Shown here: piece after piece, positions 21,321-43,914 of the stretch | How the letters are laid out: every line of letters starts with the position of its first letter | Numbering within the stretch: position 1 is the stretch's first letter | DNA from: an uncultured bacterium | Lineage (GTDB): Bacteria > Chloroflexota > UBA5177 > JANWHV01 | DNA: 64,000 nucleotides | Reading direction: 5' to 3' | NCBI GenBank assembly: GCA_963827235.1 | Contig: CAWHAE010000016.1 | Span: forward strand, 608,001-672,000 | Made by a program: the position numbers and the translations under genes | The notes under the pieces: model-generated | Seen by the model: only the letters and a program-made list of their open reading frames with translations | Database searches by the model: none | What the model was told of the DNA's origin: nothing

Positions 21321-22850
21321 TCAGACGATCAGATCCGGCTCGCGGTTCACTGGTGGAGTCACAGGGAGTACCACGCCAAACGTGCTGCCTCCGACCTCGC
21401 CGCTGCGCACCCACATCTGGCCGCCGTGCTCGCGCACGATCGTATGGCTGATATACAGGCCGACACCCAGACCCGAGAAGTGTTGGGCGCGCGATCGCAC
21501 ACGGTAGAATCGCTGGAACAGTTGGCCTTGTTCCTCGGCGGGTATGCCCACTCCACTATCCGAAACGGTGATCGTGACCTCGGTGCGAGTGCCCTCGACA
21601 GTCACCCGCACCGGCCCGCCGTCCGGCGAGTACTTGACCGCATTGTCGAGCAGGTTGGTGAGTACCTGCTCCAGTCGCGTCGCGTCGCACAGAATCACAC
21701 CGCTGCTGCCGTCATCGTCCAGGAGGAAACTACGATCGGGATGGGCGGTGCGATGAACATCAACTGCCTCCCGCACGAGGTCAGTAACCGGGACCGGTGC
21801 GATGCGCAGGCTCATCCGGCCGGCGTGAATTCGCGACACGTCGAGTAGATCGGTTACCAAACGAGTCAATCTGTCGGCCTGGCGAACGATCTTGTCGGCG
21901 TTGGCAACGACGTCCTTCGCTTCCATCTTGTCCGCGTTCATCTGCGTGAGCTGCGCGTAGCCGCGGAGCGTGCTGATCGGGGTCTTGAGCTCGTGGGTCG
22001 CCATGGAGACGAACTCATCCTTCTGTCGCTCGCGCTCCCGCAGCACGGTGACGTCCCGGCACATCACCAGCCCGCCGGCAACCGTGTCCTCTCTGAGCAG
22101 CTTTGCCGCGGTGAACATGCAGTGCAGCTGGCAGGTATCCTCGCCCAGCTGCATGACTACTTCTCCGGCGAGCACGTTGGGACCGTTCAGCGGCCAGCCG
22201 GACGGCAAAACTTCCGCGACCGGAGTGAGCGCCGGCACCACGCGTACATTGAAGGCTTGGATGAGGTCCATCCACGGTCTGCCGGCATACGAGTCCACCG
22301 ACGTGCCGAGTAGCTTAGCCGCGCCGGGGTTGATCTCGACGATCCGGCCCTTGATGTCCAGCGTAATCACGGCCTCGGGCAAAGAGCGCAGCATGTCCTG
22401 CAAGGAGCAGAGCCCGGCCTCGGCCCTGGCAACCGCGGCGCGAGCACGCAGCGCGACGCTCTCCTGATTGCGCATTCTCTCTCGCTCGCGCTCCCGAATC
22501 TGAAGCTGCTGTATCACGACTGCCGCGGCCAGGCCCTGGGCCACCAGCGCAATCACGCGGTTCGCCAGCGCCGCGGTCGCCTCATCAGGAGGAGCGCCGA
22601 ATCCCGCCACCGCCACGGTAGCCACTGACGTGACCACGAAGACGAAGTATGTGGCGCGTGGTGCGCCGAGCACAAGGGTAAGCACGATGGGCGCGACGTA
22701 GAGCGCGGAGAAGACGACGTCCGCCGGATGCCAGGCGTCGCATGCGAACACAAGGGCGACCAGGATAGGAGGAAGGTACGCTAGCAGTATCGTGCGTAGC
22801 CCGCTGCCGGCTGGTGCAAAAACCTTCGTGCGCACCGCGTTCTGTTGCAT
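21321..22850 (-). CDS. Membrane PAS sensor histidine kinase
   Basis: N-terminal TM helices, PAS, HELKTP, NLLDNAVKYS, DSGVG, GLGVGL. Confidence 0.93.
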   Translation of the reverse strand: MQQNAVRTKVFAPAGSGLRTILLAYLPPILVALVFACDAWHPADVVFSALYVAPIVLTLVLGAPRATYFVFVVTSVATVAVAGFGAPPDEATAALANRVIALVAQGLAAAVVIQQLQIRERERERMRNQESVALRARAAVARAEAGLCSLQDMLRSLPEAVITLDIKGRIVEINPGAAKLLGTSVDSYAGRPWMDLIQAFNVRVVPALTPVAEVLPSGWPLNGPNVLAGEVVMQLGEDTCQLHCMFTAAKLLREDTVAGGLVMCRDVTVLRERERQKDEFVSMATHELKTPISTLRGYAQLTQMNADKMEAKDVVANADKIVRQADRLTRLVTDLLDVSRIHAGRMSLRIAPVPVTDLVREAVDVHRTAHPDRSFLLDDDGSSGVILCDATRLEQVLTNLLDNAVKYSPDGGPVRVTVEGTRTEVTITVSDSGVGIPAEEQGQLFQRFYRVRSRAQHFSGLGVGLYISHTIVREHGGQMWVRSGEVGGSTFGVVLPVTPPVNREPDLIV

Positions 22851-28463: not shown

Positions 28464-29450
28464 CTAGCGGCCTACCTCGAGGTCTCGCAGCGTCGACAGG
28501 AGGAAAGCATTGGCAGGGGCGAACTGGCGCCCGATACCGCGCTTCAACTCGGCGATTGCCTCGTCGGGGTCCCGTGGCGCCCTGTATGGGCGACCGGAGC
28601 GAATCGCCTCATAGGCGTCCGCCAAGCCGATCAACTGGGCATGAATGGGTATGGCGTCCTCGGACAAGCGATCCGGGTACCCGGTGCCGTCCCAGCGCTC
28701 GTGATGATGGCGGACCGACGGAGCGAGGTGAGCAAGACAGGCCACGCGGCGGACCATGCGGTCTCCGGCCGCGGGATGAATGCGCAGCGAGCTCCATTCG
28801 CCGTTGGAAAGGGTGCTGCGTTTGCGAAGCAGCTGAGTGGAGACGCCGATCTTGCCGATATCGTGCAGCACGGCGGCCGTCTCAAGCGCCAACAGGTCGC
28901 GCGCATTGAAGTTCATGGCTCGCCCGAGGCTCGCCGCGAGCCGTCGCACCGTGTACGAATGCCTGGCCGTGGCAGGCTCATGCGCCTCCAGCATCTGCAT
29001 CATGGCGTCCGCGGCCTGCTGCATCGTATCGAGGCGACCTGCCGAGGCAAGAAGCAGAGCGTGCACATGCGCAGCGTAGCCCCTGGCCAGGGCAATGTAC
29101 TCGTGCTGGCTGGCCACGTACCCGTAGTCATAGAGCACGACCAGCGCACCGCGCATACCGAGCACCGGCTCGACAGGAGAGGCAGCCAACCCCGGGCGGC
29201 TTACGCCTTCGCCGCTCTCGAGCACGCGCAGGGCGTGGGCCCTCCACGCATTGAGATGGCCACGGCCGGCCGCCATGTCCGAGAGCTCGCCACCTTTCGA
29301 GGCTAGCAGCAGCCTGGCACCGATGCCCGCGCCGGACGCCTCGTCGAGAATAGCTTGCAGTGCCGGCCGCAGCAGCAGATCACAGTCCCAAGGGCAGTCG
29401 CATATCGGCTGTGCCGGGTTAACCGGCAACAGCCTCGCTGCATTCAGCAT
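28464..29450 (-). CDS. HD-GYP c-di-GMP phosphodiesterase with degenerate GAF-like N-terminus
   Basis: H...T..HS, LHDIGK, HP..G, HHERWDGTGYP, LADAY, RPYR motifs. Confidence 0.92.
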   Translation of the reverse strand: MLNAARLLPVNPAQPICDCPWDCDLLLRPALQAILDEASGAGIGARLLLASKGGELSDMAAGRGHLNAWRAHALRVLESGEGVSRPGLAASPVEPVLGMRGALVVLYDYGYVASQHEYIALARGYAAHVHALLLASAGRLDTMQQAADAMMQMLEAHEPATARHSYTVRRLAASLGRAMNFNARDLLALETAAVLHDIGKIGVSTQLLRKRSTLSNGEWSSLRIHPAAGDRMVRRVACLAHLAPSVRHHHERWDGTGYPDRLSEDAIPIHAQLIGLADAYEAIRSGRPYRAPRDPDEAIAELKRGIGRQFAPANAFLLSTLRDLEVGR

Positions 29451-29705: not shown

Positions 29706-30182
29706 TCAGCGCTTCGAGTGGCTGGCGGTAGTCTTGGTATGACTCTTGGTCGCGTGCAAGGGGCCACCGTTCGCGCCGCCTGCGCTGCTCAGCCTGATAG
29801 CGAGCGGTCCGCCACTCGCGCCGCCTGCACTGCTCAGCCTGATAGCGAGCGGTCCGCCGTTCGCACCGCCTGCGCTGCTCAGCCTGATAGCGAGCGGTCC
29901 GCCGTTCGCGCCGCCTGCACTGCTCAGCGAGTGGGCCAGGGGGCCACCGTTCGCGCCGCCTGCACTGCTCAGCCTGATAGCGAGCGGTCCGCCGTTCGCG
30001 CCGCCTGCACTGTTCAGCGAGTGGGCCAGGGGTCCGCCATTCGCTCCGCCTGCACTGTTCACAGCGGCATGGAAGGCACGGCCGGTGGTTGCCGCGTGCG
30101 CTTGCGTATCCACGTGAACGGCCGCCAGGCAACTTGCGGAAAACACGATGGCAATGGCAACGCGTCGAATTGCATGCGTCAT
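29706..30182 (-). CDS. Secreted multi-core repeat peptide precursor (158 aa)
   Basis: GAGGAG RBS; signal peptide MTHAIRRVAIAIVFSASCLAAVHVDTQAHA; 7 x [N/S]SAGGA[N/S]GGPL; basic His/Thr tail. Confidence 0.85.
   Translation of the reverse strand: MTHAIRRVAIAIVFSASCLAAVHVDTQAHAATTGRAFHAAVNSAGGANGGPLAHSLNSAGGANGGPLAIRLSSAGGANGGPLAHSLSSAGGANGGPLAIRLSSAGGANGGPLAIRLSSAGGASGGPLAIRLSSAGGANGGPLHATKSHTKTTASHSKR
29757..30059 (-). repeat. Coding tandem repeat, 45-nt period, 7 cores
   Basis: Cores recur every 45 nt from 29757 to 30027; variation within cores is mainly synonymous in the minus-strand frame. Confidence 0.95.
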
Positions 30183-30368
30183 GGCAGTATGCTCCTCTAG
30201 GACAAACGTTCTATACCACAGCAAAGCTCAGTACTCTTACCTGCTTGACGTGGTTATCCTCTTCAACCGGGGCCGCGTACGACTGCCGCTAGCTGCAGCC
30301 ACGCCCGTACCCGGACGCTCCCAGAAACGAGACCACCTACGTCTGTTCGCGATCGCAGACGCACACTG

Positions 30369-30445
30369 TTTGGCGGCAAACTGTCATATAATAGCTGTGG
30401 CTGTCAACCGCGCCTTAGGACCCAGTTCGGCCATTTGCCGCCGAA
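30369..30445. promoter_or_regulatory. Divergent promoter region: 12-bp inverted repeat enclosing TATAAT and CTGTCA direct repeats
   Basis: TTTGGCGGCAAA (30369-80) / TTTGCCGCCGAA (30434-45); TATAAT 30387-92; CTGTCA at 30381 and 30401. Confidence 0.45.
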
Positions 30446-30504
30446 GGTAGGTTAGCATAGAGACCCTGGGCGCACCCTGAGACGATTTCAGGAGAGAGTA
30501 GCCG

Positions 30505-33500
30505 GTGACAGACGGCAACATGCCCGGCAATCCTGCCTGGTCTTCGGCCAAGACGCGAGTTCCCTTGCCGCGTATCCTCGTTTCACGCCCGCGCCTTATC
30601 CAGCCGCTCAACACCGCGGCCGAAGCCGGCCGCGTCACCCTGATCGTCGCGCCCGGCGGATCGGGCAAGAGCACACTGGCGGCCGATTGGACTCGGCAGG
30701 CTACCATGCCCGTCGCGTGGTATACGGTCGACGCCGCCGACCGCGATATCCGCCGCTTGGCGGCCGGGGTATGCGGAGCGATCGCTCGCGTGCTCCCCGG
30801 CGCCGCCGACTCGGCCATGCGTGCGATTGAAAATGGTGCTACCGAAGTCGCTGCTATCGGTCTTCTGCTTGACAGGCTGGAAAACGAGCCGCTGACTCTC
30901 GTGCTCGACGACTTTCACCACCTCGACGGCGTGCCGGAAGCCACCGCACTGTGGGAACACTTCTTCCGATTCAGGCCGCCGACCCTGGCGCTCACCATCC
31001 TCTCCCGCACCGTGCCCATTCTTGGCTTTGCCATGCTGGCGGCAATGGATGCTCTGCTCGGACTTGGGCGCACCGACCTCAGCTTCGTGCCTGACGAGGC
31101 AGCCGAGCTGCTGGCCCGGCACGGCCTGGACCCGGCCCCGGCCGCCCAGTTCGTGACCCGCACCGACGGTTGGGCGACGGGATTGCTCATGCTCGCGAGA
31201 GCAGCTCCCAGCGGAGTTCGCCAGCTCCACGTGCGCGTTGATACCCTGATGAACCAGCTTGGTGCCGAGCTGCTTAGCTCGCTGTCCGTCGATCTGCGCA
31301 CCTTCCTGCTCGAAAGCGCCTCGCTCGGCCCGGTGACGCCGGAGCAAGCTGACGACCTTCTCGGCCGTGCCAACAGTCTGGCGCTGTTCGGCGACATCTT
31401 GCAGCGAGGCCTCTTTCTCGCCAGAGAAGCGACGACCTACCGGTATCACGATCTCTTTGCCGAGTACGCTGTCGCGGTTCTACGTACCGAAGACCCTGCT
31501 AAGCTGCGCTCGATTCGCGAGCATGCCTCCGCCTACTGGTGCGACCAGGGCGACCTGCCGCGCGCGCTCGGTCTCTTGGCCGAGGACGGCAACTGGCTTG
31601 CGCTGGCTGCACTGCTCGAGACCCAGCGGGGTGCTCTCTGGAGCCGCGCCATGTGGGGAACCGCCATCGACATGGTCGAGCGGCTGCCCGAGAAGTATCG
31701 CACCCCACGCGTCCTGTCGCTTAGCGCGACCTGTCACACCTCCCGCGGAGAGTACGCGCAGGCGCTGGCACAGGCCGACGCGGGCATGGCCCTGTCGCAT
31801 GACGAGAGCGAGTGGCTGAGCTGTGCCGTGACACACGCCGACACGCTGCACTGCGAAGGAAGGCTCGAGGAATGCGCGCGGAGTGCCGATGCCGCGCTCG
31901 CCGTAGCGCGGAGAATCGAGCACGGCGCCGCCATCACCCGCTTGCTCAGCCTGAGAGGCCGTGCGAGGCTCGGCCTCGGCATGATGGACTCCGGCATGGA
32001 GGACATGACGGCAGCACTGGATGCGTACGGCGCGGCGCACGACGAGGGCGCAGAGTCAATGACTCTCTACAACATGGCCCTGAGCCTCACGGAGGCGGGA
32101 CGCTGCAACGGCACCGACGAGTATTTCGCGCGCGCCGCGGCCATGGCAGGCCGTAACGGTGATCTGCAAATGCTGACCATGGTGCGAAACCTGCGCGCGA
32201 TCCACAGGTGGCACTCCGGTGATCTGGCGGCTGCCGAAGACGATGCCAAGTCAGCGCTGCTTACACTTGGTGAAGCCGGCTCTCCGGTGCTTGCGTGCGA
32301 CACCATGGCGACGCTGAGCATGATCTACGCCGAGAAGAGCGACCTGAATGAAGCAGAGCAGGTCGCCGCGCGCACCATCGAGCTGGGCGAGCGCGTCTAT
32401 GCACCCAGGGCAGAGAACGAGGCCAGGCGCGCCCTGGTCTGGTGTGCGCTGCTCCGCCGCGACCGCGGCAAGGCCAGGCAACTGATCGAGGCTGCCCGGC
32501 AGCAACCGCTCCCACCGATCGACGCGGCACTGCTCGATCTCCTGGAAGGTACCCACGCTCTGCGCGTGCGTGCCTATGCGCGAGCCGCCGAGCTGCTCGG
32601 CGAGGTCGCCCAGCGGCTCGAGCGCCTACAGCGACCCCAGTACGCGGCACGGGCCCTCGTCCTCCGCGCCGAGGCCTTGTTATCGTCGGGCTCTGTGAGC
32701 AGGGCCGAGGAAGCTCTGAACCATGCCGCATTGCTCGTGTTACCTCTTGGCTGTGAGGGATTCCTGCGACCGGTAGCCCGAATGACGCGGCAGGTGCTCG
32801 CTGAACGGCAGATCCTGCGTAAGCTGCGCCGTGACACACGATCCTTGCTCGAGCAGCTTGCGAGCGGCGTACCGGTGCTGACCGTAGTGGGCGAGACTCG
32901 CCTGGCCGAGGACGCGCCGCCGCCACTGCGCGTCTCGCCCTTCGGCCCAGGTCGGCTGTACTTTGGTGGACGAGCCATCGACGCCAATGCCCTGCCGCCG
33001 CGAGCTCGCGAGGTGTTGTTCTACGCAGCTCACCAGAGGGGGTCGGTCGAGCGCAGCGTACTGCTGGAGGCGGTTTGGGAGGCCGACGCTCGAGCATCCC
33101 AGTCGTTGTGGGATGCGAGCAGGCATATCCGGCGATTGCTCGGCGAGCGCCACTGGACGATCCGCGGCGGAGTGTACTCCCTCAATGTAGTGGTGAACGA
33201 CGACGCATTGCAGTTCGACGCTGAGTCGCTCGTCGTACACGGCAGCGGCTCCGATATCGAGCGGGTGGCAGCGGGCGAGCGGGCTCTGGCGCTGGTAGCG
33301 CCGGGCATGTTCATGGAATGGTGCGACAGCATGTGGGCTACTTCGCTTCGCGCGCACTACACCGAGCTGGCGCTTTCCACCCTGCTCGAGACGGCGGCCC
33401 TGTATGACGGCCTGGGACGCACCGAGGACGGTGCTGCCACACTGCGCAAGGCTGTAGCCGTCGATCCGCTGGACGAGCGACCGCGCCTGGCCCTTGTGCG

Positions 33501-33681
33501 CAGCCTGGCCGGCCAGGGCATGGTGCAGCAGGCGGTGAGCGAGTATCGCGAGTACCGCGACCTGGTGCACCATGAGCTCGACGCGGAGCCGTCGGCCGAG
33601 CTGCGCCGCTTCGTCGCCACCTTGGGCAAGCGACTCGCTCAGGGAAGAACGCCGCGCGAAGATCCGCCTCGCAGAACCTGA
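30505..33681 (+). CDS. MalT-type STAND ATPase-TPR regulator with C-terminal wHTH/BTAD (SARP-like) module
   Basis: K..VP...VSRPRL, APGGSGKST, LVLDDFH, DGWATGL, YRYHDLF; long Ala/Leu helical TPR-like region; C-terminal W.D..W...R, DPLDE...L, Y..L..ELDAEPS. Confidence 0.9.
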   Translation: MTDGNMPGNPAWSSAKTRVPLPRILVSRPRLIQPLNTAAEAGRVTLIVAPGGSGKSTLAADWTRQATMPVAWYTVDAADRDIRRLAAGVCGAIARVLPGAADSAMRAIENGATEVAAIGLLLDRLENEPLTLVLDDFHHLDGVPEATALWEHFFRFRPPTLALTILSRTVPILGFAMLAAMDALLGLGRTDLSFVPDEAAELLARHGLDPAPAAQFVTRTDGWATGLLMLARAAPSGVRQLHVRVDTLMNQLGAELLSSLSVDLRTFLLESASLGPVTPEQADDLLGRANSLALFGDILQRGLFLAREATTYRYHDLFAEYAVAVLRTEDPAKLRSIREHASAYWCDQGDLPRALGLLAEDGNWLALAALLETQRGALWSRAMWGTAIDMVERLPEKYRTPRVLSLSATCHTSRGEYAQALAQADAGMALSHDESEWLSCAVTHADTLHCEGRLEECARSADAALAVARRIEHGAAITRLLSLRGRARLGLGMMDSGMEDMTAALDAYGAAHDEGAESMTLYNMALSLTEAGRCNGTDEYFARAAAMAGRNGDLQMLTMVRNLRAIHRWHSGDLAAAEDDAKSALLTLGEAGSPVLACDTMATLSMIYAEKSDLNEAEQVAARTIELGERVYAPRAENEARRALVWCALLRRDRGKARQLIEAARQQPLPPIDAALLDLLEGTHALRVRAYARAAELLGEVAQRLERLQRPQYAARALVLRAEALLSSGSVSRAEEALNHAALLVLPLGCEGFLRPVARMTRQVLAERQILRKLRRDTRSLLEQLASGVPVLTVVGETRLAEDAPPPLRVSPFGPGRLYFGGRAIDANALPPRAREVLFYAAHQRGSVERSVLLEAVWEADARASQSLWDASRHIRRLLGERHWTIRGGVYSLNVVVNDDALQFDAESLVVHGSGSDIERVAAGERALALVAPGMFMEWCDSMWATSLRAHYTELALSTLLETAALYDGLGRTEDGAATLRKAVAVDPLDERPRLALVRSLAGQGMVQQAVSEYREYRDLVHHELDAEPSAELRRFVATLGKRLAQGRTPREDPPRRT

Positions 33682-35571: not shown

Positions 35572-38235
35572 CTACGCTTCGCGGCTGAGCCGGATGCGAG
35601 CGTCGATTGCCACGACACCGCTACCGGCAGCGCGAACGACCACGGGGTTCAGATCCAGCTCCACGAGCTCGGGCACATCCTCGACCAGTCGGGATATGCG
35701 CAGAAGCAGGTCTCGGAGTGCCGGAACGTCGGATGCCGGTGAGCCGCGATAGCCTTTCAGCAGCGTGGCGACCTTGCGATGAGCAATCAGCTCGTCGGCG
35801 TCGACGTCGGTCATCGGATGGATGCGGAACGACACGTCGCCGATAACCTCGGCCGTCACTCCGCCGGAGCCAAAAGCGATCAGAGGCCCAAAGATGGGAT
35901 CTCGGACCACGCCGACCAGGCACTCAACGCCGCCGGTGAGCATCGGCTGCACCAGAGCGCCCTCCATGCCCTTCTCCAGGCCGCGCTCCGCCAGCGCCGA
36001 GGCGATGGCCCGGTAAGCATCGGACGCGCCCTCGGGGGACTCTATGTTCAGCCGCACGCCGCCGACGTCCGACTTGTGCACGATTGTGCTCGAGACGAGC
36101 TTGACTACCACGGGGGCGCCGATCTCGCGGCACGCATCGGCCGCCTCCTCGGCCGAGCGCACGATGCGGCCGGTGGGGAGGGAAATGCCGTACGCCGTCA
36201 GCAGCTTCTCGATCTCCACGGCGGTGAGCCACGGACGCTCCTCGCGTGCAAGCGCCTCCGAGACGATGCCGCGCGCCACGTTGTGGTCGATCTCGGCATA
36301 CTCTGGAAGTGTTCCAGCCGGCCTGCGCAGCCACGCGGCTCGTGCCGCGGCCTGCCCGAGCGCCCGCGCCGCGGACTCCGGGAACGGGTAGGTTGGTATC
36401 ACAGTCTTGGCCTTGCTCAGCACGTCGGGAGCCGCGCAACCGACGAAGCAGGCCATGATCGGTTTGTCCGGAGCCGGATCACAGACCTTCACCAGCTCTG
36501 CCGCGATTTCCTCCGGCTTGGTGACCATGACTGGAATATACAGCGCGATCACCGAATCGATTCCCGGGTCGTCGAGCAGTGTCTTCGCCACCGCCGCATA
36601 GGTCGGAGCGGGAATGGCCGCGATCATGTCGACTGGGTTGTTTACAGATGCCTCCTTGGGAAGCATCGCTCGAAGCGTCGTCTTGGTCTGATCGGATAGC
36701 TGCGGCACCTCCAGGCCGTTCGCCTCGCAGGCATCGGCGCAGAGAATCCCTAGGCCACCGGCATTGGTGATTACCGCGACGCGCCTGCCGGTGGGCAGCG
36801 GCTGGTTCGCGAACAGCGTGGAGAGCTCGAACAGTTCCTCGAGGGTCTCGGCGCGAATCACTCCTGCTTGCTTAAACAGGGCGTCGACCGCCACGTCGGA
36901 TCCGGCGAGGGCGGCGGTGTGGGAGGCAGCGGCGCGCCGTCCCGACGTGCTGCGCCCGCCTTTCACAGCCAGAATCGGTTTTCGGGCGCCTACGCGGCGC
37001 GCGATGCGGGCGAACCGGCGTGGGTTCCCGAAGCTCTCGAGGTAGAGCACGATCACCTTGGTGGCCGGATCCTCCTCCCAGTATTCGAGGAGGTCGTTGG
37101 AGCTCAGATCCGCCTTGTTGCCGATGGAAACGAACGACGAAACGCCGAGGCCCAGCGAGCGCGCAGTCTGCAGAATGGCGATACCGAGGGCTCCAGATTG
37201 CGAGGAGATGGCGACTGATCCACCGGGAGGCAGGCTCGGCGTAAATGTGGCGTTGATCGCGCCGCGCTCGTGGCGCACGAGTACGCCGAGACAGTTTGGC
37301 CCTACCATGCGAGCACCATAAGACTGGCAGAGGTACAACAGCTCGTTCTGCAGCGCGCGTCCCTCCGAGCTGACCTCGGCGAAACCGGCAGAGATCACGA
37401 CGAGCGCCTTTGCGCCGGCTTCCAGACAGTCGCGCGCCGCATCCATTACGCTGGCAGACGGCACGCAGATGATCGCCATATCCACGGTATCGGTGATCGA
37501 CTTGACGTTCGGGAAGGCCTTTACGGAGGAGATTGATCCGGCGGAAGGATTGACCGGATAAACTGCGCCTTCGTAGCCTGCCTGAAGAAGGTTGCTGAAT
37601 ACCGCCTGCCCGATGGAGCCCGGCCGGCGGGAGGCACCCACGACGGCAATCGCCCGCGGGTGGAACAACGGATCGAGAGACTTGACTGCCGCAACGTGCC
37701 GGCGCTCGTCAGCGCGCACGAAGTATCCTTGGTCGGGGTGCAGGTCCACTTCCACAAGCACGGTTCCGTGCTCGTGTACGCGCTTCTGCTTGAAACCCAG
37801 GTCGCTCAGCAGCGTGAGCATCTCGCCGTTCTGCGCGCTGACCTCGGCAATGATGCGCGTGATACCCTCGCGGCGCGCATCATTGGACAGGTGCTCGAAC
37901 ATCACGGTCCCGATGCCGTTGCCCTGCTCGGAATCGGCTACCACGATGGCCAGCTCCGCGGCCATCGGATCGACCAGGCGGTTGAACGAGGCAACCGCGA
38001 CGACATGGTTCTCCCGTTCTGCCAGCAACGCGTGTCCGGCGACGACACGCTCGACCAGGTCTGCATCGATACGAATGCCGGCAGAGTGGAATCGCTGAGC
38101 GCGGCTTTCAGGGGACATGCGGTTGAGCAGGTCTTCGACAGCAGCCTTGTCGGCCGTCGTGTACTTGCGAACAAGCGCCTGGCTCCCATCGCGAAGCAGG
38201 GCAAATTCGCCGGTGGGCATTGTTATCATGGTCAA
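35572..38235 (-). CDS. GNAT + acyl-CoA synthetase (NDP-forming)-like protein (Pat-type lysine acetyltransferase architecture)
   Basis: N-terminal GNAT (QGNGIG), IAVVGAS, GPNCLG, SQSG, GNKAD, NAGG, NPVD, ATP-grasp HKSDVGGV, LDLNP. Confidence 0.92.
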   Translation of the reverse strand: MTMITMPTGEFALLRDGSQALVRKYTTADKAAVEDLLNRMSPESRAQRFHSAGIRIDADLVERVVAGHALLAERENHVVAVASFNRLVDPMAAELAIVVADSEQGNGIGTVMFEHLSNDARREGITRIIAEVSAQNGEMLTLLSDLGFKQKRVHEHGTVLVEVDLHPDQGYFVRADERRHVAAVKSLDPLFHPRAIAVVGASRRPGSIGQAVFSNLLQAGYEGAVYPVNPSAGSISSVKAFPNVKSITDTVDMAIICVPSASVMDAARDCLEAGAKALVVISAGFAEVSSEGRALQNELLYLCQSYGARMVGPNCLGVLVRHERGAINATFTPSLPPGGSVAISSQSGALGIAILQTARSLGLGVSSFVSIGNKADLSSNDLLEYWEEDPATKVIVLYLESFGNPRRFARIARRVGARKPILAVKGGRSTSGRRAAASHTAALAGSDVAVDALFKQAGVIRAETLEELFELSTLFANQPLPTGRRVAVITNAGGLGILCADACEANGLEVPQLSDQTKTTLRAMLPKEASVNNPVDMIAAIPAPTYAAVAKTLLDDPGIDSVIALYIPVMVTKPEEIAAELVKVCDPAPDKPIMACFVGCAAPDVLSKAKTVIPTYPFPESAARALGQAAARAAWLRRPAGTLPEYAEIDHNVARGIVSEALAREERPWLTAVEIEKLLTAYGISLPTGRIVRSAEEAADACREIGAPVVVKLVSSTIVHKSDVGGVRLNIESPEGASDAYRAIASALAERGLEKGMEGALVQPMLTGGVECLVGVVRDPIFGPLIAFGSGGVTAEVIGDVSFRIHPMTDVDADELIAHRKVATLLKGYRGSPASDVPALRDLLLRISRLVEDVPELVELDLNPVVVRAAGSGVVAIDARIRLSREA

Positions 38236-39861: not shown

Positions 39862-40515
39862 TCACTCGTGACCAAGGGCCCGTTGCTCGGCCAGGAAGGC
39901 GGCCGCTTGGGCCCGCCTTTCCATTCCCAGCTTGCTGAGAATCGTGCTCACGTAGTTCTTCACCGTCTTCTCGGACAAGTAGACGATTGTCGCGATTTCG
40001 CGATTCGTCTTGCCTTCGGCAATCAAGCCGAGGATGCGCCGCTCCTGTTCGGACAGCTCCGATAGCTTGTCTTTGTGCCCGCCGCTGGCCATCTCCCGCA
40101 TTCTCGCGAGCACCTTGCCCATAACACTCGGATCCAGCAGCGACTCACCGCGAGCCACGGACTCGATTGCTGTCACGAGCTCTCGGCCACGCGTCTGCTT
40201 GAGCAGGTAGCCAGCCGCCCCGGCAATAATCGCCGCGTAGACCGCCTCGTCGTCGGCATAGCTGGTGAGCATGAGCACCTGGATTTCCGGGTGCTCGGCC
40301 CGGATCTCGCGGCAGGCCTCGATACCGGTACCGTCGGGCAAGCGGACGTCCATCACGATGACGTTGGGCAGTTCCCGGCCGGCGCTCTCCACGGCCTCAG
40401 CCACCGAAGAGGCTTCGGCGACGACCCGGATATTCTCCCTCCGCTCGAGCAGCGATTTCAAGCCCTGACGCACGACCTCATGGTCGTCGACGAGCATCAC
40501 GCGGATATCAGACAC
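39862..40515 (-). CDS. NarL/DosR-like response regulator
   Basis: VDDHEVVR, MDVRLPDGTG, LTS, GYLLK, TNREIA...KTVKNYVS.IL.KL. Confidence 0.94.
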   Translation of the reverse strand: MSDIRVMLVDDHEVVRQGLKSLLERRENIRVVAEASSVAEAVESAGRELPNVIVMDVRLPDGTGIEACREIRAEHPEIQVLMLTSYADDEAVYAAIIAGAAGYLLKQTRGRELVTAIESVARGESLLDPSVMGKVLARMREMASGGHKDKLSELSEQERRILGLIAEGKTNREIATIVYLSEKTVKNYVSTILSKLGMERRAQAAAFLAEQRALGHE

Positions 40516-41923
40516 TGCTGTCCCCCTGTCCTCCAGTGGCCACCGGGATTCGCACGCGAACCGTAGCACCGCCACCCAGCTCGGACTGAATTGTCACGCG
40601 CCCACCGAGTGCCAGCGCACGATTGCGCATGTCTCTCAAACCCTGGTGCTCAGGGGTGTGCATCGCCCGCGTGTCGAAGCCCGAGCCATTGTCGATGATT
40701 TCCAGTTCAACGAATCCAACTGCTGCTTGTAGTGTAATCCACACGCGACCAGCGCGCGCGTGGCGAACCACGTTGCTGACCGCCTCGCGCGCAATGTGGA
40801 CCAGATCCTCAGTAAGAGGCTGGGGAACCTCTACCGCGTCGAGACCCTGCACACTCAGCTCAGTGTCCAGCAGAGTGTGCGCGCGGGCTTGCTCGAGAAG
40901 TGCGGCCAGGGCCTCGGGAAGCGTCGCGGAGGCTTCCTGCGGCTTCAGGGCAAGCACGTGGTTGCGTAGCTGCTTGATCACCCCCTCAAGCCGCTCCATG
41001 GCCCCCTCGATACGGCCGCGCGCCGCATCCGGACTAGCCTCCAGGTCGTCGCAGGCGCACTCGAGCTCCAGATTCACGCCGTAGATCGCCTGCAGGGCGC
41101 TATCGGGCAAGTCCGTGCGCACTCGCTCGCGCTCGGCCGCCACACCCAGCGTGCGGATGCGCTGCGCCATGCGTGCGTGAACGATGACCACAGCCGCATA
41201 GCTCGCCAGGACGCCGAGAAGGTCCTCGTCCTCCTGCGCGAATTCGGGTCCCTCTATCTTGTCGGAAAGATAGAGAGTGCCCAGGCAGTTGCCCGCATGG
41301 GTGACAGGCACACCCACCAGTGTTTGCATAGCCGGGTGCCCTGGTGGAAAGCCGGCACGCCTCGCATCGGCGGTGAGGTCATCCAGGCGAATCGCGGTAC
41401 TCTGCCGCAACATCGCGCCGAGCAGTCCGCGACCGCTGGGAGGCGCGCCGATCCTGAGCCGATCCTCGCGGGGAATGCCCGACGTATAGAAGGCGTCAAT
41501 CTCGCCCGGAGAGCCGGTGACAGCCAGCGCCCCGTAGCGGGCTCCGATCACGTCTCTTGCCAGATCTACGATGCGCTGCAACGTTGCATCCATGTCCTGG
41601 ACTGCAGCAATGGCCAGCGAGGCCTGGTGCAGCGCTTCCATTTGGGTGCGCAGACGGCGTTCGGTCGCATAGCGCTGCTCGAGGTCCGCGTACTGGCGAT
41701 CCAGGTCGAGATCCTGCCTGTCGATGACGCGGAACATAAGCAGGGAAAAGCCCATGACCCCGGCGGTTCCTCCTGCGACGACGACAGAGCCCGACACATA
41801 CCACGGCCAGCTCGACAGCGCCCAGATGCTGAAGGCATAAAAAGGACCGAGCAGACACAGCGGTACCACGACGCTGAGCAGTCGCAGCACTCGACGCCGT
41901 CCGAGCCGTTCGTTCCTTTGCAT
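40508..41923 (-). CDS. Membrane GAF sensor kinase-like protein with H-box His replaced by Pro
   Basis: 2 TM, GAF (ARYGAL, G.GLLG, GFPPGHP), ERERVRTDLPD, EAVSNVVRHA, DNGSGFD; GGAGG RBS (ORF extends to 41965). Confidence 0.88.
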   Translation of the reverse strand: MQRNERLGRRRVLRLLSVVVPLCLLGPFYAFSIWALSSWPWYVSGSVVVAGGTAGVMGFSLLMFRVIDRQDLDLDRQYADLEQRYATERRLRTQMEALHQASLAIAAVQDMDATLQRIVDLARDVIGARYGALAVTGSPGEIDAFYTSGIPREDRLRIGAPPSGRGLLGAMLRQSTAIRLDDLTADARRAGFPPGHPAMQTLVGVPVTHAGNCLGTLYLSDKIEGPEFAQEDEDLLGVLASYAAVVIVHARMAQRIRTLGVAAERERVRTDLPDSALQAIYGVNLELECACDDLEASPDAARGRIEGAMERLEGVIKQLRNHVLALKPQEASATLPEALAALLEQARAHTLLDTELSVQGLDAVEVPQPLTEDLVHIAREAVSNVVRHARAGRVWITLQAAVGFVELEIIDNGSGFDTRAMHTPEHQGLRDMRNRALALGGRVTIQSELGGGATVRVRIPVATGGQGDSSV

Positions 41924-42171
41924 GGCAATGCCACACCTCCGCTCAATTCCCGATGATCTCCTCATCTCACGCTAGCAAGCGCCGAGTTAAAGGCCGAAGG
42001 GCCATGGGTCACAAGATGAGCGGCAATTAGGCCCTGAAAGCTCTGCGCCGGGCAGGTAACACATCCTGCAGACGGATCAGAAGAACCGACCACGACCGGC
42101 CCACGTCGAGACAGCCCGTCGCAATGCCGCCGTTCCGTGCCGCCGCGTGCGCGCCGGCCTCTGGAACGCTG

Positions 42172-43914
42172 CTACGCCTCGAAAGGCACGAAAGCAGTCA
42201 CGGTAGTACCCGCACCGGGCCTGCTCTGCAGGGAGAGCGTGCCACCCACCTCATCCGTGCGCACACGCATGTTGCGGATGCCGCGATGCTCGTCTCCACG
42301 CGGCGCTCGCGTGTCGAAACCCAGGCCGTCATCCTGCACGACCAGCGTGGCACCGGCTCCGTCGTAGGTGAGGCGAACCTCCACGCTCGACGCCGCGGCG
42401 TACTTGACCACGTTGGACAGCGCCTCGCGCGCAATCAACATAAGCATGTTGGCCTGATCGTCGGGGAACTCGTAGGGTTGACCCTCGAGGTAGAAGCGCG
42501 CTCGCAGCCCACATTGCCCGTCGATATCGCGGGTAAGGGCCGCGATACCGTCTGCCAGCAGACGGCCGTCGAGAGTGCGAGCGCGCAGACCCTGGATGTA
42601 TGTCCGAATGTCCGTGATAGTGCCCGACAGCCGGTCCGTCACTCCGGCCAGCCTGTCGCGCACGGGCTGATCGGCAACGTCCTCGGCAACGTCCTCAAGC
42701 TGCAGCGTTGCCGCGTAGATGTCCTGAATGATGCCGTCGTGCAGGTCGCGAGCGATCCGCTCGCGCTCGTGCAGCAGTGTCAGCTCGCCCAGCTGCGTGT
42801 AGAGCCGCGCATTCTCGATGGCGATGCCGGCGTGTGCTGCCAAGAGCTCGATCTGCCTCTGGTCCTCCTCCGAGAACTCCGGTCCGCCCACCTTGTCGGT
42901 CAGGTACAGGTCCCCGACTACCTGACCGTGAACCCGGATCGGCACGCCCAGCAGGCTCGTCATCACCGGGTGGTGCGGAGGAAAGCCCACGCGTCTCGGA
43001 TCCTTTCCAATGTTGGCGACGCGAAGCGATCGGCCAAGTCGAATGAGCACGCCGAGCAGGCCGTGACCGCGCGGCGTGCTGCCTATCCGTTCCCGTTCTT
43101 CTTCGGTGATGCCGGTTGTGATGAACTCGGTCAGATAGCCGTCCGGACCCACCACGCCAAGCGCCCCAAACTGGGCGCCGGCAATGCTCGCCGCGGCCGC
43201 CACGATCCGCTGCAACACCTGATCCAGGGAGAGCTCCGATGCCAGTGCCCTACTGGCATCGTCCAGCGCGATCATTCGCTCGCGCATGGCCTGGTCCTGC
43301 TGATGCACCAGGGCATTAGCGATGGCCTGGCCGGCCAGCTTCGCCAGCGCGCGTACCGATTCGGTCTCGGCCGAGGGTGGTCGCTCGGCATACAGCAGAA
43401 TGAGCGCTGCGACTAACATGTCGTCGCCAAAGAGCGCCACGGCACGAAGCGTGCCCGGGCGCCTCATTCCCGACAGCAACGGCGGCTCGAGATCGGGCTG
43501 CGAGGCCACGGGAATCTCCAGGAGATCGGCCGACTCGGCAGCCCGCTTTGCCACCACCTGGATGCTCTCATAGCCCTGGCGCTGCAGCCATCGCTCATCC
43601 AGGTCCCCGCTAGCGCCAGCACCCGCCGGCAAGAAATCACCGGCACCGCGCTCGTAGAGCAACACGAGAGAGGCGTCGGCGCCACCAACGGTCATCGCGT
43701 GGGAGGCAAGGCGGCCTACGAGAGTCGTCACGTCACGCGTCGCACAGAGATCCTCTGCGATGCGCCACGCGTGGAAAGTCATGCCGAACTGGCTATCGAT
43801 ATCTCGTGTCCGCACGTGACTATTCGGCCCGCCTGCCCAACGATGGTTGGCACATTCAGGTGTCTCGAGCCCTGCCGATGGGCAAGCACATTGCGAGAAC
43901 CTCGAATTCAGCAT
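42172..43914 (-). CDS. DosS/DosT-like GAF-GAF HisKA_3 histidine kinase
   Basis: GFPPHHP, ERERIARDLHD, EALSNVVKY, DDGLGFD; true start probably downstream of 43914. Confidence 0.92.
   Translation of the reverse strand: MLNSRFSQCACPSAGLETPECANHRWAGGPNSHVRTRDIDSQFGMTFHAWRIAEDLCATRDVTTLVGRLASHAMTVGGADASLVLLYERGAGDFLPAGAGASGDLDERWLQRQGYESIQVVAKRAAESADLLEIPVASQPDLEPPLLSGMRRPGTLRAVALFGDDMLVAALILLYAERPPSAETESVRALAKLAGQAIANALVHQQDQAMRERMIALDDASRALASELSLDQVLQRIVAAAASIAGAQFGALGVVGPDGYLTEFITTGITEEERERIGSTPRGHGLLGVLIRLGRSLRVANIGKDPRRVGFPPHHPVMTSLLGVPIRVHGQVVGDLYLTDKVGGPEFSEEDQRQIELLAAHAGIAIENARLYTQLGELTLLHERERIARDLHDGIIQDIYAATLQLEDVAEDVADQPVRDRLAGVTDRLSGTITDIRTYIQGLRARTLDGRLLADGIAALTRDIDGQCGLRARFYLEGQPYEFPDDQANMLMLIAREALSNVVKYAAASSVEVRLTYDGAGATLVVQDDGLGFDTRAPRGDEHRGIRNMRVRTDEVGGTLSLQSRPGAGTTVTAFVPFEA

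Follow-up and report, generated by a model that had tools for sequence, protein, structure and literature searches.

The 64,000-nucleotide stretch of DNA analyzed here (hereafter the window; positions 608,001 to 672,000 of contig CAWHAE010000016.1, assembly GCA_963827235.1), which derives from an uncultured bacterium of the Chloroflexota, encodes on its minus strand, at 29706..30182, a protein of 158 residues, P0001, in which seven near-identical cores stand in tandem behind an apparent export signal. We favor, with a confidence that falls a little short of even, the reading that P0001 is a multi-copy signaling propeptide and that the STAND regulator encoded divergently beside it is its cognate partner. 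We place this putative pair outside the RRNPPA systems because the regulator is of the STAND/BTAD type and because two additional conserved genes belong to the locus.

The P0001 gene starts at an ATG at 30182, ends with a stop codon at 29706-29708 and has a Shine-Dalgarno motif, GAGGAG, 8 nt 5′ of the ATG. Its translation, read by eye, opens with an export signal (residues 1-30; 30093..30182, minus strand) made up of a basic n-region, a hydrophobic core, a lipobox-like Cys at residue 18 and an A-H-A site at residues 28-30. A spacer of 11 residues (31-41; 30060..30092, minus strand), missing in alignment from the orthologues of two related genomes (G001 and G002), leads from the presumed signal cleavage site to the first of seven 15-residue units, which begin at residue 42. 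Together the seven cores, [N/S]SAGGA[N/S]GGPL, and the six four-residue linkers fill residues 42-142 (29757..30059, minus strand); the core of unit 6 has ASGG and the other six have ANGG, and the linkers run in the order AHSL, AIRL, AHSL, AIRL, AIRL, AIRL. A basic His/Thr/Lys tail, HATKSHTKTTASHSKR, closes the protein (residues 143-158; 29709..29756, minus strand), and the tails of its orthologues are likewise short and contain His. A sequence-only reading of the window, made by a model before this analysis, had described this frame with its seven cores, the n-region, hydrophobic stretch and A-H-A site, the start of the units, the split between ANGG and ASGG, the linker order and the tail, and the frame lies at exactly the coordinates given there and shows all of these features; that reading said nothing of the minus strand, the conserved Cys18, the neighboring genes for an NHLP-clan and an HD-GYP protein or the divergent STAND regulator. 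Searches of Pfam and NCBIfam with P0001 returned noise only, and an NHLP domain was not found in it. Immediately 5′ of the ATG (30183-30224, minus strand), 14 in-frame codons, which include an alternative TTG start at 30224, are similar in the window, in G001 and in a metagenomic orthologue, P0006; rather than coding sequence, they most likely represent a conserved 5′ leader in which the Shine-Dalgarno motif lies.

Is it the peptide, rather than the DNA repeat, that has been maintained? Since GC-rich, repetitive DNA leaves all six reading frames largely open across the array, the frame was tested by comparing repeat units with one another, using the ratio of the proportions of non-synonymous and synonymous differences (pN/pS) for the dN/dS comparison that the sequence-only reading had proposed. 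When six whole units are compared, no other frame has a ratio as low as the 0.32 of the annotated one; the remaining five give 0.49, 1.00, 1.31, 2.31 and 2.82. Summed over the 21 unit pairs, which are not independent of one another, the 11 codons of the core have 77.0 synonymous and 20.0 non-synonymous differences (pN/pS 0.10), whereas the four linker codons have 19.7 and 78.3, respectively (pN/pS 1.66). Within the 33-nt cores 10 nucleotide columns vary, seven of them at third codon positions, which bears out the third-position bias, and with it the selection on the peptide, noted from the sequence alone. Purifying selection acts on the cores and not on the linkers.

The units fall into two groups by nucleotide identity: units 2, 4, 5 and 6 match one another at 41-44 of 45 nt and units 1 and 3 at 40 of 45, with only 34-36 matches between the groups. 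Because of this two-group pattern, the history of the array fits one 90-nt duplication followed by 45-nt duplications. Tandem Repeats Finder reports both periods (array from 29759 or 29767 to 30061), with 6.6 copies, 85% matches and a score of 415 at period 45 and 3.4 copies, 89% matches and a score of 466 at period 90, so that the 45- and 90-nt duplications suggested earlier on the basis of the alternating linkers agree with both the periods and the grouping.

An orthologue of P0001 is present by synteny in all five genomes of the genus (g1; G000-G004), the four congeners included, in each case directly 5′ of the orthologue of the next gene, P0002, and two more orthologues, the metagenomic proteins P0006 and P0008, came from an exhaustive HMMER search. 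The unit numbers of these seven proteins, whose lengths vary from 59 to 158 residues, are 7, 5, 2, 3, 4, 5 and 3, and their periods are 15, 15, 16, 11, 11-12, 15 and 15 residues, respectively. All 29 of their units end in PL and 27 of the 29 in GPL, while the six to seven residues before the unit end are uniform inside one protein and differ between genomes and species (for instance, SAGGANGGPL, SGITSGPL, VPAISGPL, NTSGGPL and NTGSGPL); the linkers vary in length and sequence, even inside one protein. A conserved unit end preceded by species-specific residues is the pattern that would be expected of pherotype diversification. The pattern is also the one expected if the short unit were the functional product and the array a way of making more of it; we take the unit rather than the array as the probable functional entity because the smallest mature region among the orthologues is only 28 residues and because paralogues with a single core occur. 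Asn-Gly, whose deamidation the sequence-only reading had put forward as a possible limit on signal lifetime, occurs in the cores of one of the seven orthologues, that of the window itself, and the timer is not supported as a conserved feature.

These orthologues were largely out of reach of direct sequence searches. In a six-frame search of 61 related genomes the sole real match was the G001 orthologue (E 5.1e-17), the other matches (E at least 0.0019; G055, E 0.089) being taken as low-complexity noise, and the G002-G004 orthologues, which this search missed, were recovered via synteny. Copy-number and core variants in related genomes, for which the sequence-only reading had proposed to look, exist, albeit with one of them alone detectable by the six-frame route. 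A word-indexed search of 5.8 billion proteins, covering only those of 86-277 residues, gave no match to the repeat protein, and the ESM Atlas gave noise-level scores (best 0.80). The HMMER search produced 28 matches at E ≤ 1e-3, of which nine were inspected: two were the clear orthologues, two had the same build with other cores, one was a fish protein (P0003), rejected as a low-complexity false positive, and four resembled other repeats. The two of the same build are the metagenomic proteins P0012 (87 residues, on a 679-nt contig), in which a signal-like N-terminus precedes four units that end in GGPIFK and have a core resembling that of the window, and P0010, which has five units ending in GGPF.

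P0001 is the first gene of an apparent operon. P0002 (29419..29673, minus strand), which starts 32 nt past the P0001 stop, encodes a small protein of 84 residues of the NHLP clan that belongs to the Os1348 family: it scores 42.0 bits against NF038399 (cut-off 40; 41.7 bits in the whole-genome scan) and matches PF14407 (E 4.8e-4), and a profile of nine P0002-like proteins matches the Os1348 crystal structure, PDB 6lk7 (E 2e-4). Full-length orthologues are present in all five genomes of the genus (E 8e-34 or better), with identities to P0002 of 85% and 68% noted. P0002 and four orthologues share an invariant C-terminal AVAG and have no core peptide beyond it. In P0002 and its relatives at loci L007, L021, L025 and L026 an invariant PRLYG is followed by a variable tail of ~14 residues that always ends in AVAG; P0002 may be a leader that has no core; alternatively, the variable tail may represent a small core or a second peptide in its own right. 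The third gene (28464..29450, minus strand), whose first 32 nt overlap the end of P0002, encodes a 328-residue protein with a GAF-like and an HD-GYP domain (PF13487, E 2e-34). It carries HHERWDGTGYP, found by regular expression and conforming to the canonical HHExxDGxGYP, and the model of its N-terminal 150 residues is GAF-like (predicted local distance difference test 81; template-modeling scores of 0.56-0.59 to the DosS GAF domain and the HD-GYP structure 4mcw). It thus has the HD_5/HD-GYP features of a cyclic di-GMP (c-di-GMP) phosphodiesterase, and that activity is predicted.

On the other side of P0001, a divergent gene on the plus strand (30505..33681) encodes a STAND regulator of 1058 residues consisting of a MalT-like NTPase (PRK04841, 1.4e-47; residues 24-742), a TPR/superhelical region, a winged helix and a C-terminal BTAD domain (5.2e-13; residues 919-1036). 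Its TPR matches are weak and generic, and in Pfam it matches no RRNPPA-specific family. A complex prediction of the units (P0001 residues 42-86) with its TPR region (residues 330-790) gave a score of 0.01 (mark 0.34), to which we attach no weight either way. The divergent intergenic region (30183..30504) aligns at four of four orthologous loci, where a block at ~30455-30500 (plus strand), just 5′ of the regulator start, is kept despite a mean identity of 65%; this block holds two CCTG-containing half-sites and a ribosome-binding site, and both the window and G001 have a TATAAT box ~90 nt further 5′. Scans of the locus for consensus promoters and terminators detected nothing, with no terminator-like site between P0001, P0002 and the HD-GYP gene, and the intergenic region had no match in Rfam. 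Among the 10 large open reading frames (ORFs) scanned within ~14 kb there is no radical SAM enzyme, YcaO, lanthionine synthetase, peptidase or ABC exporter, and PADLOC identified no defense family at the locus.

These genes recur together as a unit. In the window genome the NHLP-like genes number exactly three, as do the full-length paralogues of the regulator (28-33% identity), and the two sets pair one to one, so that the four-gene cassette exists there in three diverged copies whose peptides are unlike one another: seven SAGGANGGPL in the window, three ADGLGAQPFA behind a signal peptide on contig C12 and, on contig C10, one Gly/Pro-rich peptide of 27 residues behind a signal peptide that has a V-H-A site. 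The G002 orthologue of the C12 peptide has three copies of ADGSGTQPF with other linkers. A further cassette in G003 and G004 has a single-core peptide with QPGPL, and in it a receiver-domain protein replaces the HD-GYP protein. Each of the 10 NHLP-like genes found across the five genomes of the genus has, directly 5′ and on the same strand, a small ORF whose N-terminus is signal-like, and seven of these ORFs hold at least two tandem cores; the gene 3′ encodes an HD-GYP protein in eight cases (one truncated at a contig end) and a receiver domain in the other two; and a homologue of the STAND regulator adjoins nine, the tenth being at a contig end.

How far does the cassette extend beyond the genus? 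Some NHLP-like match was obtained in 49 of 401 Chloroflexota genomes, and 27 loci outside the genus were inspected. Most of them (such as those of family f13) we set apart from the cassette, since they have Franean1_4349-type or other NHLP peptides in other contexts and no HD-GYP gene. The cassette recurs in G076, from another, distant family, whose gene order is regulator, two tandem NPESFGS ORFs, NHLP-like gene and HD-GYP gene. Its regulator homologue is full-length (22% identity over ~1090 residues, E 6e-36), and its two peptide ORFs (locus L035, 1940-2420, minus strand, the same as L061, 931-1398) consist almost wholly of tandem 10-residue NPESFGS units with [V/M]K[S/R] spacers, the first array containing a run of N. 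In G031 an NHLP-like/HD-GYP pair lies at a contig end, while in G176, G384, G264 and G160 an NHLP-like gene has directly 5′ of it a small Gly/Pro-rich ORF that bears a signal, in G176 with a BTAD regulator also upstream. No match came from scanning metagenomes with the NHLP-like alignment. At loci L058, L059, L054 and L029 of other Chloroflexota, a related NHLP-like gene follows one for a membrane protein of ~200 residues and precedes one for a sigma-70-type factor or a GAF kinase. That there is a new, Chloroflexota-wide class of cognate peptide-regulator cassettes, with a STAND receptor, a hypervariable and often multi-copy peptide and an NHLP plus GAF-HD-GYP (or receiver) output, is a possibility that we hold to be on balance doubtful.

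If P0001 is a signaling propeptide, its life might proceed as follows. The N-terminal signal would carry the protein across the membrane via Sec, and signal peptidase I would cut after A-H-A (residue 30), unless Cys18 were lipid-anchored first. Extracellular proteases would then cut the array into as many as seven near-identical short peptides ending at or near GPL, and the freed peptide would serve as a species-specific signal. The divergent MalT-like ATPase/TPR/BTAD regulator could sense the peptide, either directly after uptake or indirectly, and control the operon, whose co-expressed output, formed by the NHLP-clan protein and the GAF-HD-GYP phosphodiesterase, would couple the signal to c-di-GMP turnover. 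The sequence-only reading had already proposed a polyprotein-style propeptide, and the core of that proposal, an exported multi-copy precursor, is strengthened because orthologues with two to seven copies exist, with a conserved core end, variable linkers and a minimum mature region of 28 residues, because paralogous cassettes exist and because the context is one of signaling rather than biosynthesis.

Several observations weigh against this proposal. The NHLP-clan protein is its weakest point, since the propeptide model does not explain the role of this protein and its clan is otherwise tied to precursors of peptides that are made on the ribosome and modified after translation (RiPPs), the Os1348 prototype affecting antibiotic activity according to PMC7726476. 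The cassette encodes neither a protease nor a peptide importer, and the candidate receptor is of the STAND/SARP type, which is not a known peptide receptor family. Secretion and processing are predictions read from the protein sequence, and the lipobox-like Cys in all seven orthologues suggests a membrane tethering that a freely diffusing signal would not need. The peptide ORFs of G076 begin directly with repeats and have no signal peptide, and export is therefore not universal in the wider family. Finally, the copy number of seven comes from one assembly (21 contigs, completeness 95.9%, contamination 9.06%). The only public run with DNA of the locus (X1) yields two short contigs, identical to 30040-30208 and 30226-30453, and the count depends on that assembly because these contigs end at the array edge; in runs X2 and X3 the matches are confined to the conserved HD-GYP motif region of other organisms, and no RNA run containing the locus is listed among the public runs.

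The first alternative to consider is that signal peptidase II cuts P0001 before Cys18 to give a lipidated lipoprotein whose flexible, Gly/Pro-rich repeat array acts intact at the cell surface in a structural or adhesive role or as a tethered ligand. A Cys preceded by G or S at -1, with small or hydrophobic residues at -2 and -3, is present at residues 18-21 in seven of seven orthologues, at the position expected of a lipobox, and the genome encodes both Lgt (PF01790, two matches, best E 1.3e-59) and signal peptidase II (PF01252, one match, E 7.2e-31), all above their cut-offs; for these two reasons a lipid anchor at Cys18 is possible. The lipobox consensus has L, V or I at -3, however, and this canonical residue occurs in one of the seven orthologues, whereas an [A/V]-H-A site for signal peptidase I is kept in six of the seven, 10-13 residues past the Cys, and the peptides of the paralogous cassettes have no lipobox Cys. 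A regular-expression survey of the genome for lipoboxes was too noisy to define that of this organism. The N-terminus of P0001 fits a Sec signal with predicted cleavage after A-H-A, and plain Sec cleavage appears somewhat more likely than lipidation; by either route the array is predicted to end up outside the cell. Separately, a twin arginine in the n-region of five of the seven orthologues (window 30182-30160, minus strand) led us to consider the Tat route, which nothing else supports. Even were the protein anchored, its action as an intact array would be hard to square with mature regions of 28-60 residues and a range of two to seven copies, and tethering is compatible with later release of peptides. 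We consider it unlikely that P0001 is such an intact surface protein.

The second alternative, to which we assign a similarly small share of our confidence, takes P0001 for a multi-core precursor of a RiPP or antimicrobial, with the NHLP-clan partner as a leader-like protein or scaffold and the modifying enzymes encoded elsewhere, or with the HD-fold protein itself performing the modification. Multi-core precursors are typical of several RiPP classes, the invariant neighbor of P0001 is an NHLP-clan protein above the NF038399 cut-off, and the repeats of the G076 peptides, which run from the very start, look more like those of a RiPP than of a pheromone. Furthermore, PMC7726476 places Os1348 in a cluster with putative modification enzymes. 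On the other hand, no known maturase, protease or exporter is encoded by the 10 neighboring large ORFs scanned, and none was seen in the paralogous and orthologous cassettes, which were read as ORF lists. P0001 has a classical export signal and not a RiPP leader, the third gene of the cassette alternates between HD-GYP and receiver domains, both of them parts of signaling systems, and the HD-GYP protein not only retains the canonical motif but also has the GAF-like/HD-GYP build of a solved c-di-GMP phosphodiesterase. That there is no functional gene here at all, the ORF having arisen by chance over a GC-rich tandem repeat or the array being an artefact of assembly, is close to refuted, since the openness of the six frames and a repeat count unconfirmed by independent reads are set against a frame-specific substitution pattern, a Shine-Dalgarno motif, a signal peptide and syntenic orthologues of the same build in four other assemblies, in addition to two metagenomic proteins.

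What would it mean if P0001 were indeed a signaling propeptide? To our knowledge, peptide pheromone systems with an adjacent cytoplasmic receptor have been described almost only in Bacillota, and we know of none described in Chloroflexota. A full-text literature search found no paper that combines HD-GYP with NHLP, and among the titles and abstracts listed for related searches on Chloroflexi or Chloroflexota none describes such a cassette. The logic of adjacent-receptor pheromones would then extend to the Chloroflexota with a different type of receptor, and the locus points to a peptide as a possible input to c-di-GMP signaling. The cassette would also supply a testable partner and context for Os1348-type NHLP-clan proteins. 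On the more doubtful reading of a Chloroflexota-wide class, peptide quorum sensing would have a direct connection to c-di-GMP, and the NHLP fold would gain a role beyond RiPP leaders. Seven would be the highest copy number so far, a ranking on which the tables of duplicated propeptides in PMC9765709 and PMC11343458 might bear. According to PMC11343458, tandem duplication of a pheromone inside one propeptide has been examined experimentally only recently, and the natural series of two to seven copies, together with three diverged cassettes in one genome, offers material for testing the role of copy number in dose, timing and diversification.

Elsewhere in the window, the neighborhood is rich in signaling genes, among them one for a 509-residue PAS histidine kinase (21321-22850) and, in a row at 39862-43914 (minus strand), two GAF/HisKA_3 histidine kinases and a LuxR-type response regulator. 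At 35572-38235 (minus strand) lies a gene for an 887-residue protein in which a GNAT acetyltransferase domain is fused to an ADP-forming acyl-CoA synthetase (its domains being CoA-binding, succinyl-CoA-ligase-like and ATP-grasp), which from its domain order we presume to be a Pat-type protein acetyltransferase.

Among known systems, the eukaryotic polyprotein precursors of pheromones or hormones (yeast alpha-factor type), in which a signal peptide is followed by tandem copies of one peptide with short spacers, had been invoked in the sequence-only reading through the case of alpha-factor. The linkers in the window have no dibasic Kex2-type sites, however, and P0001 has no pro-region or glycosylation signal; its resemblance to alpha-factor is an analogy only; the units of G076, unlike those of the window, do have K-R or K-S between them. 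Precursors of cyanobactin- and microviridin-type RiPPs also have repeated cores whose copy number varies between strains. These multi-core precursors have cytoplasmic leaders, recognition sequences and adjacent maturases, whereas P0001 has a predicted export signal and no maturase among the 10 ORFs around it. In comparison with NHLP/Nif11-type RiPPs, the NHLP-clan domain is in a separate protein, P0002, and not in P0001, there is no Gly-Gly site with a core, and the same ORFs include no maturase or peptidase-domain ABC exporter; P0001 is not an NHLP-type RiPP precursor because it has no NHLP domain and its NHLP-like neighbor has no core. P0002 is similar to Os1348 itself (NF038399; 6lk7), being a member of the same family and almost the same length (84 versus 85 residues). 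The company it keeps is different: Os1348 is flanked by a GNAT protein, a HEXXH peptidase-like protein and a SagB-type dehydrogenase, according to PMC7726476, whereas the partners of P0002 are a repeat peptide that is predicted to be exported, an HD-GYP or receiver protein and a STAND regulator.

The comparison that brings P0001 closest to a system of known function is with the Phr and AimP peptides of the RRNPPA systems of Bacillota and their phages. An RRNPPA receptor is a TPR array, usually with an N-terminal helix-turn-helix, of ~300-450 residues, and its mature peptide has 5-10 residues. The differences are considerable: the family of P0001 has up to seven copies, units of 11-16 residues and a host in the Chloroflexota, the regulator is a 1058-residue MalT-like STAND ATPase with a winged helix and a BTAD domain that does not conform to the RRNPPA fold, and two extra conserved genes, apparently co-transcribed, encode an NHLP-clan protein and an HD-GYP or receiver protein. 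The likenesses are in the design of the system, namely a small propeptide, in P0001 with a predicted signal of Sec type, beside a presumably cytoplasmic, TPR-containing regulator, several identical or near-identical presumed mature peptides, diversification between lineages and duplication of whole cassettes. Duplicated Phr-type propeptides have 50-120 residues and one to four repeats, are exported via Sec, matured by extracellular proteases and re-imported via Opp (PMC11343458). By analogy, it is these tandemly duplicated Phr-type RRNPPA propeptides that P0001 most resembles in its probable function.

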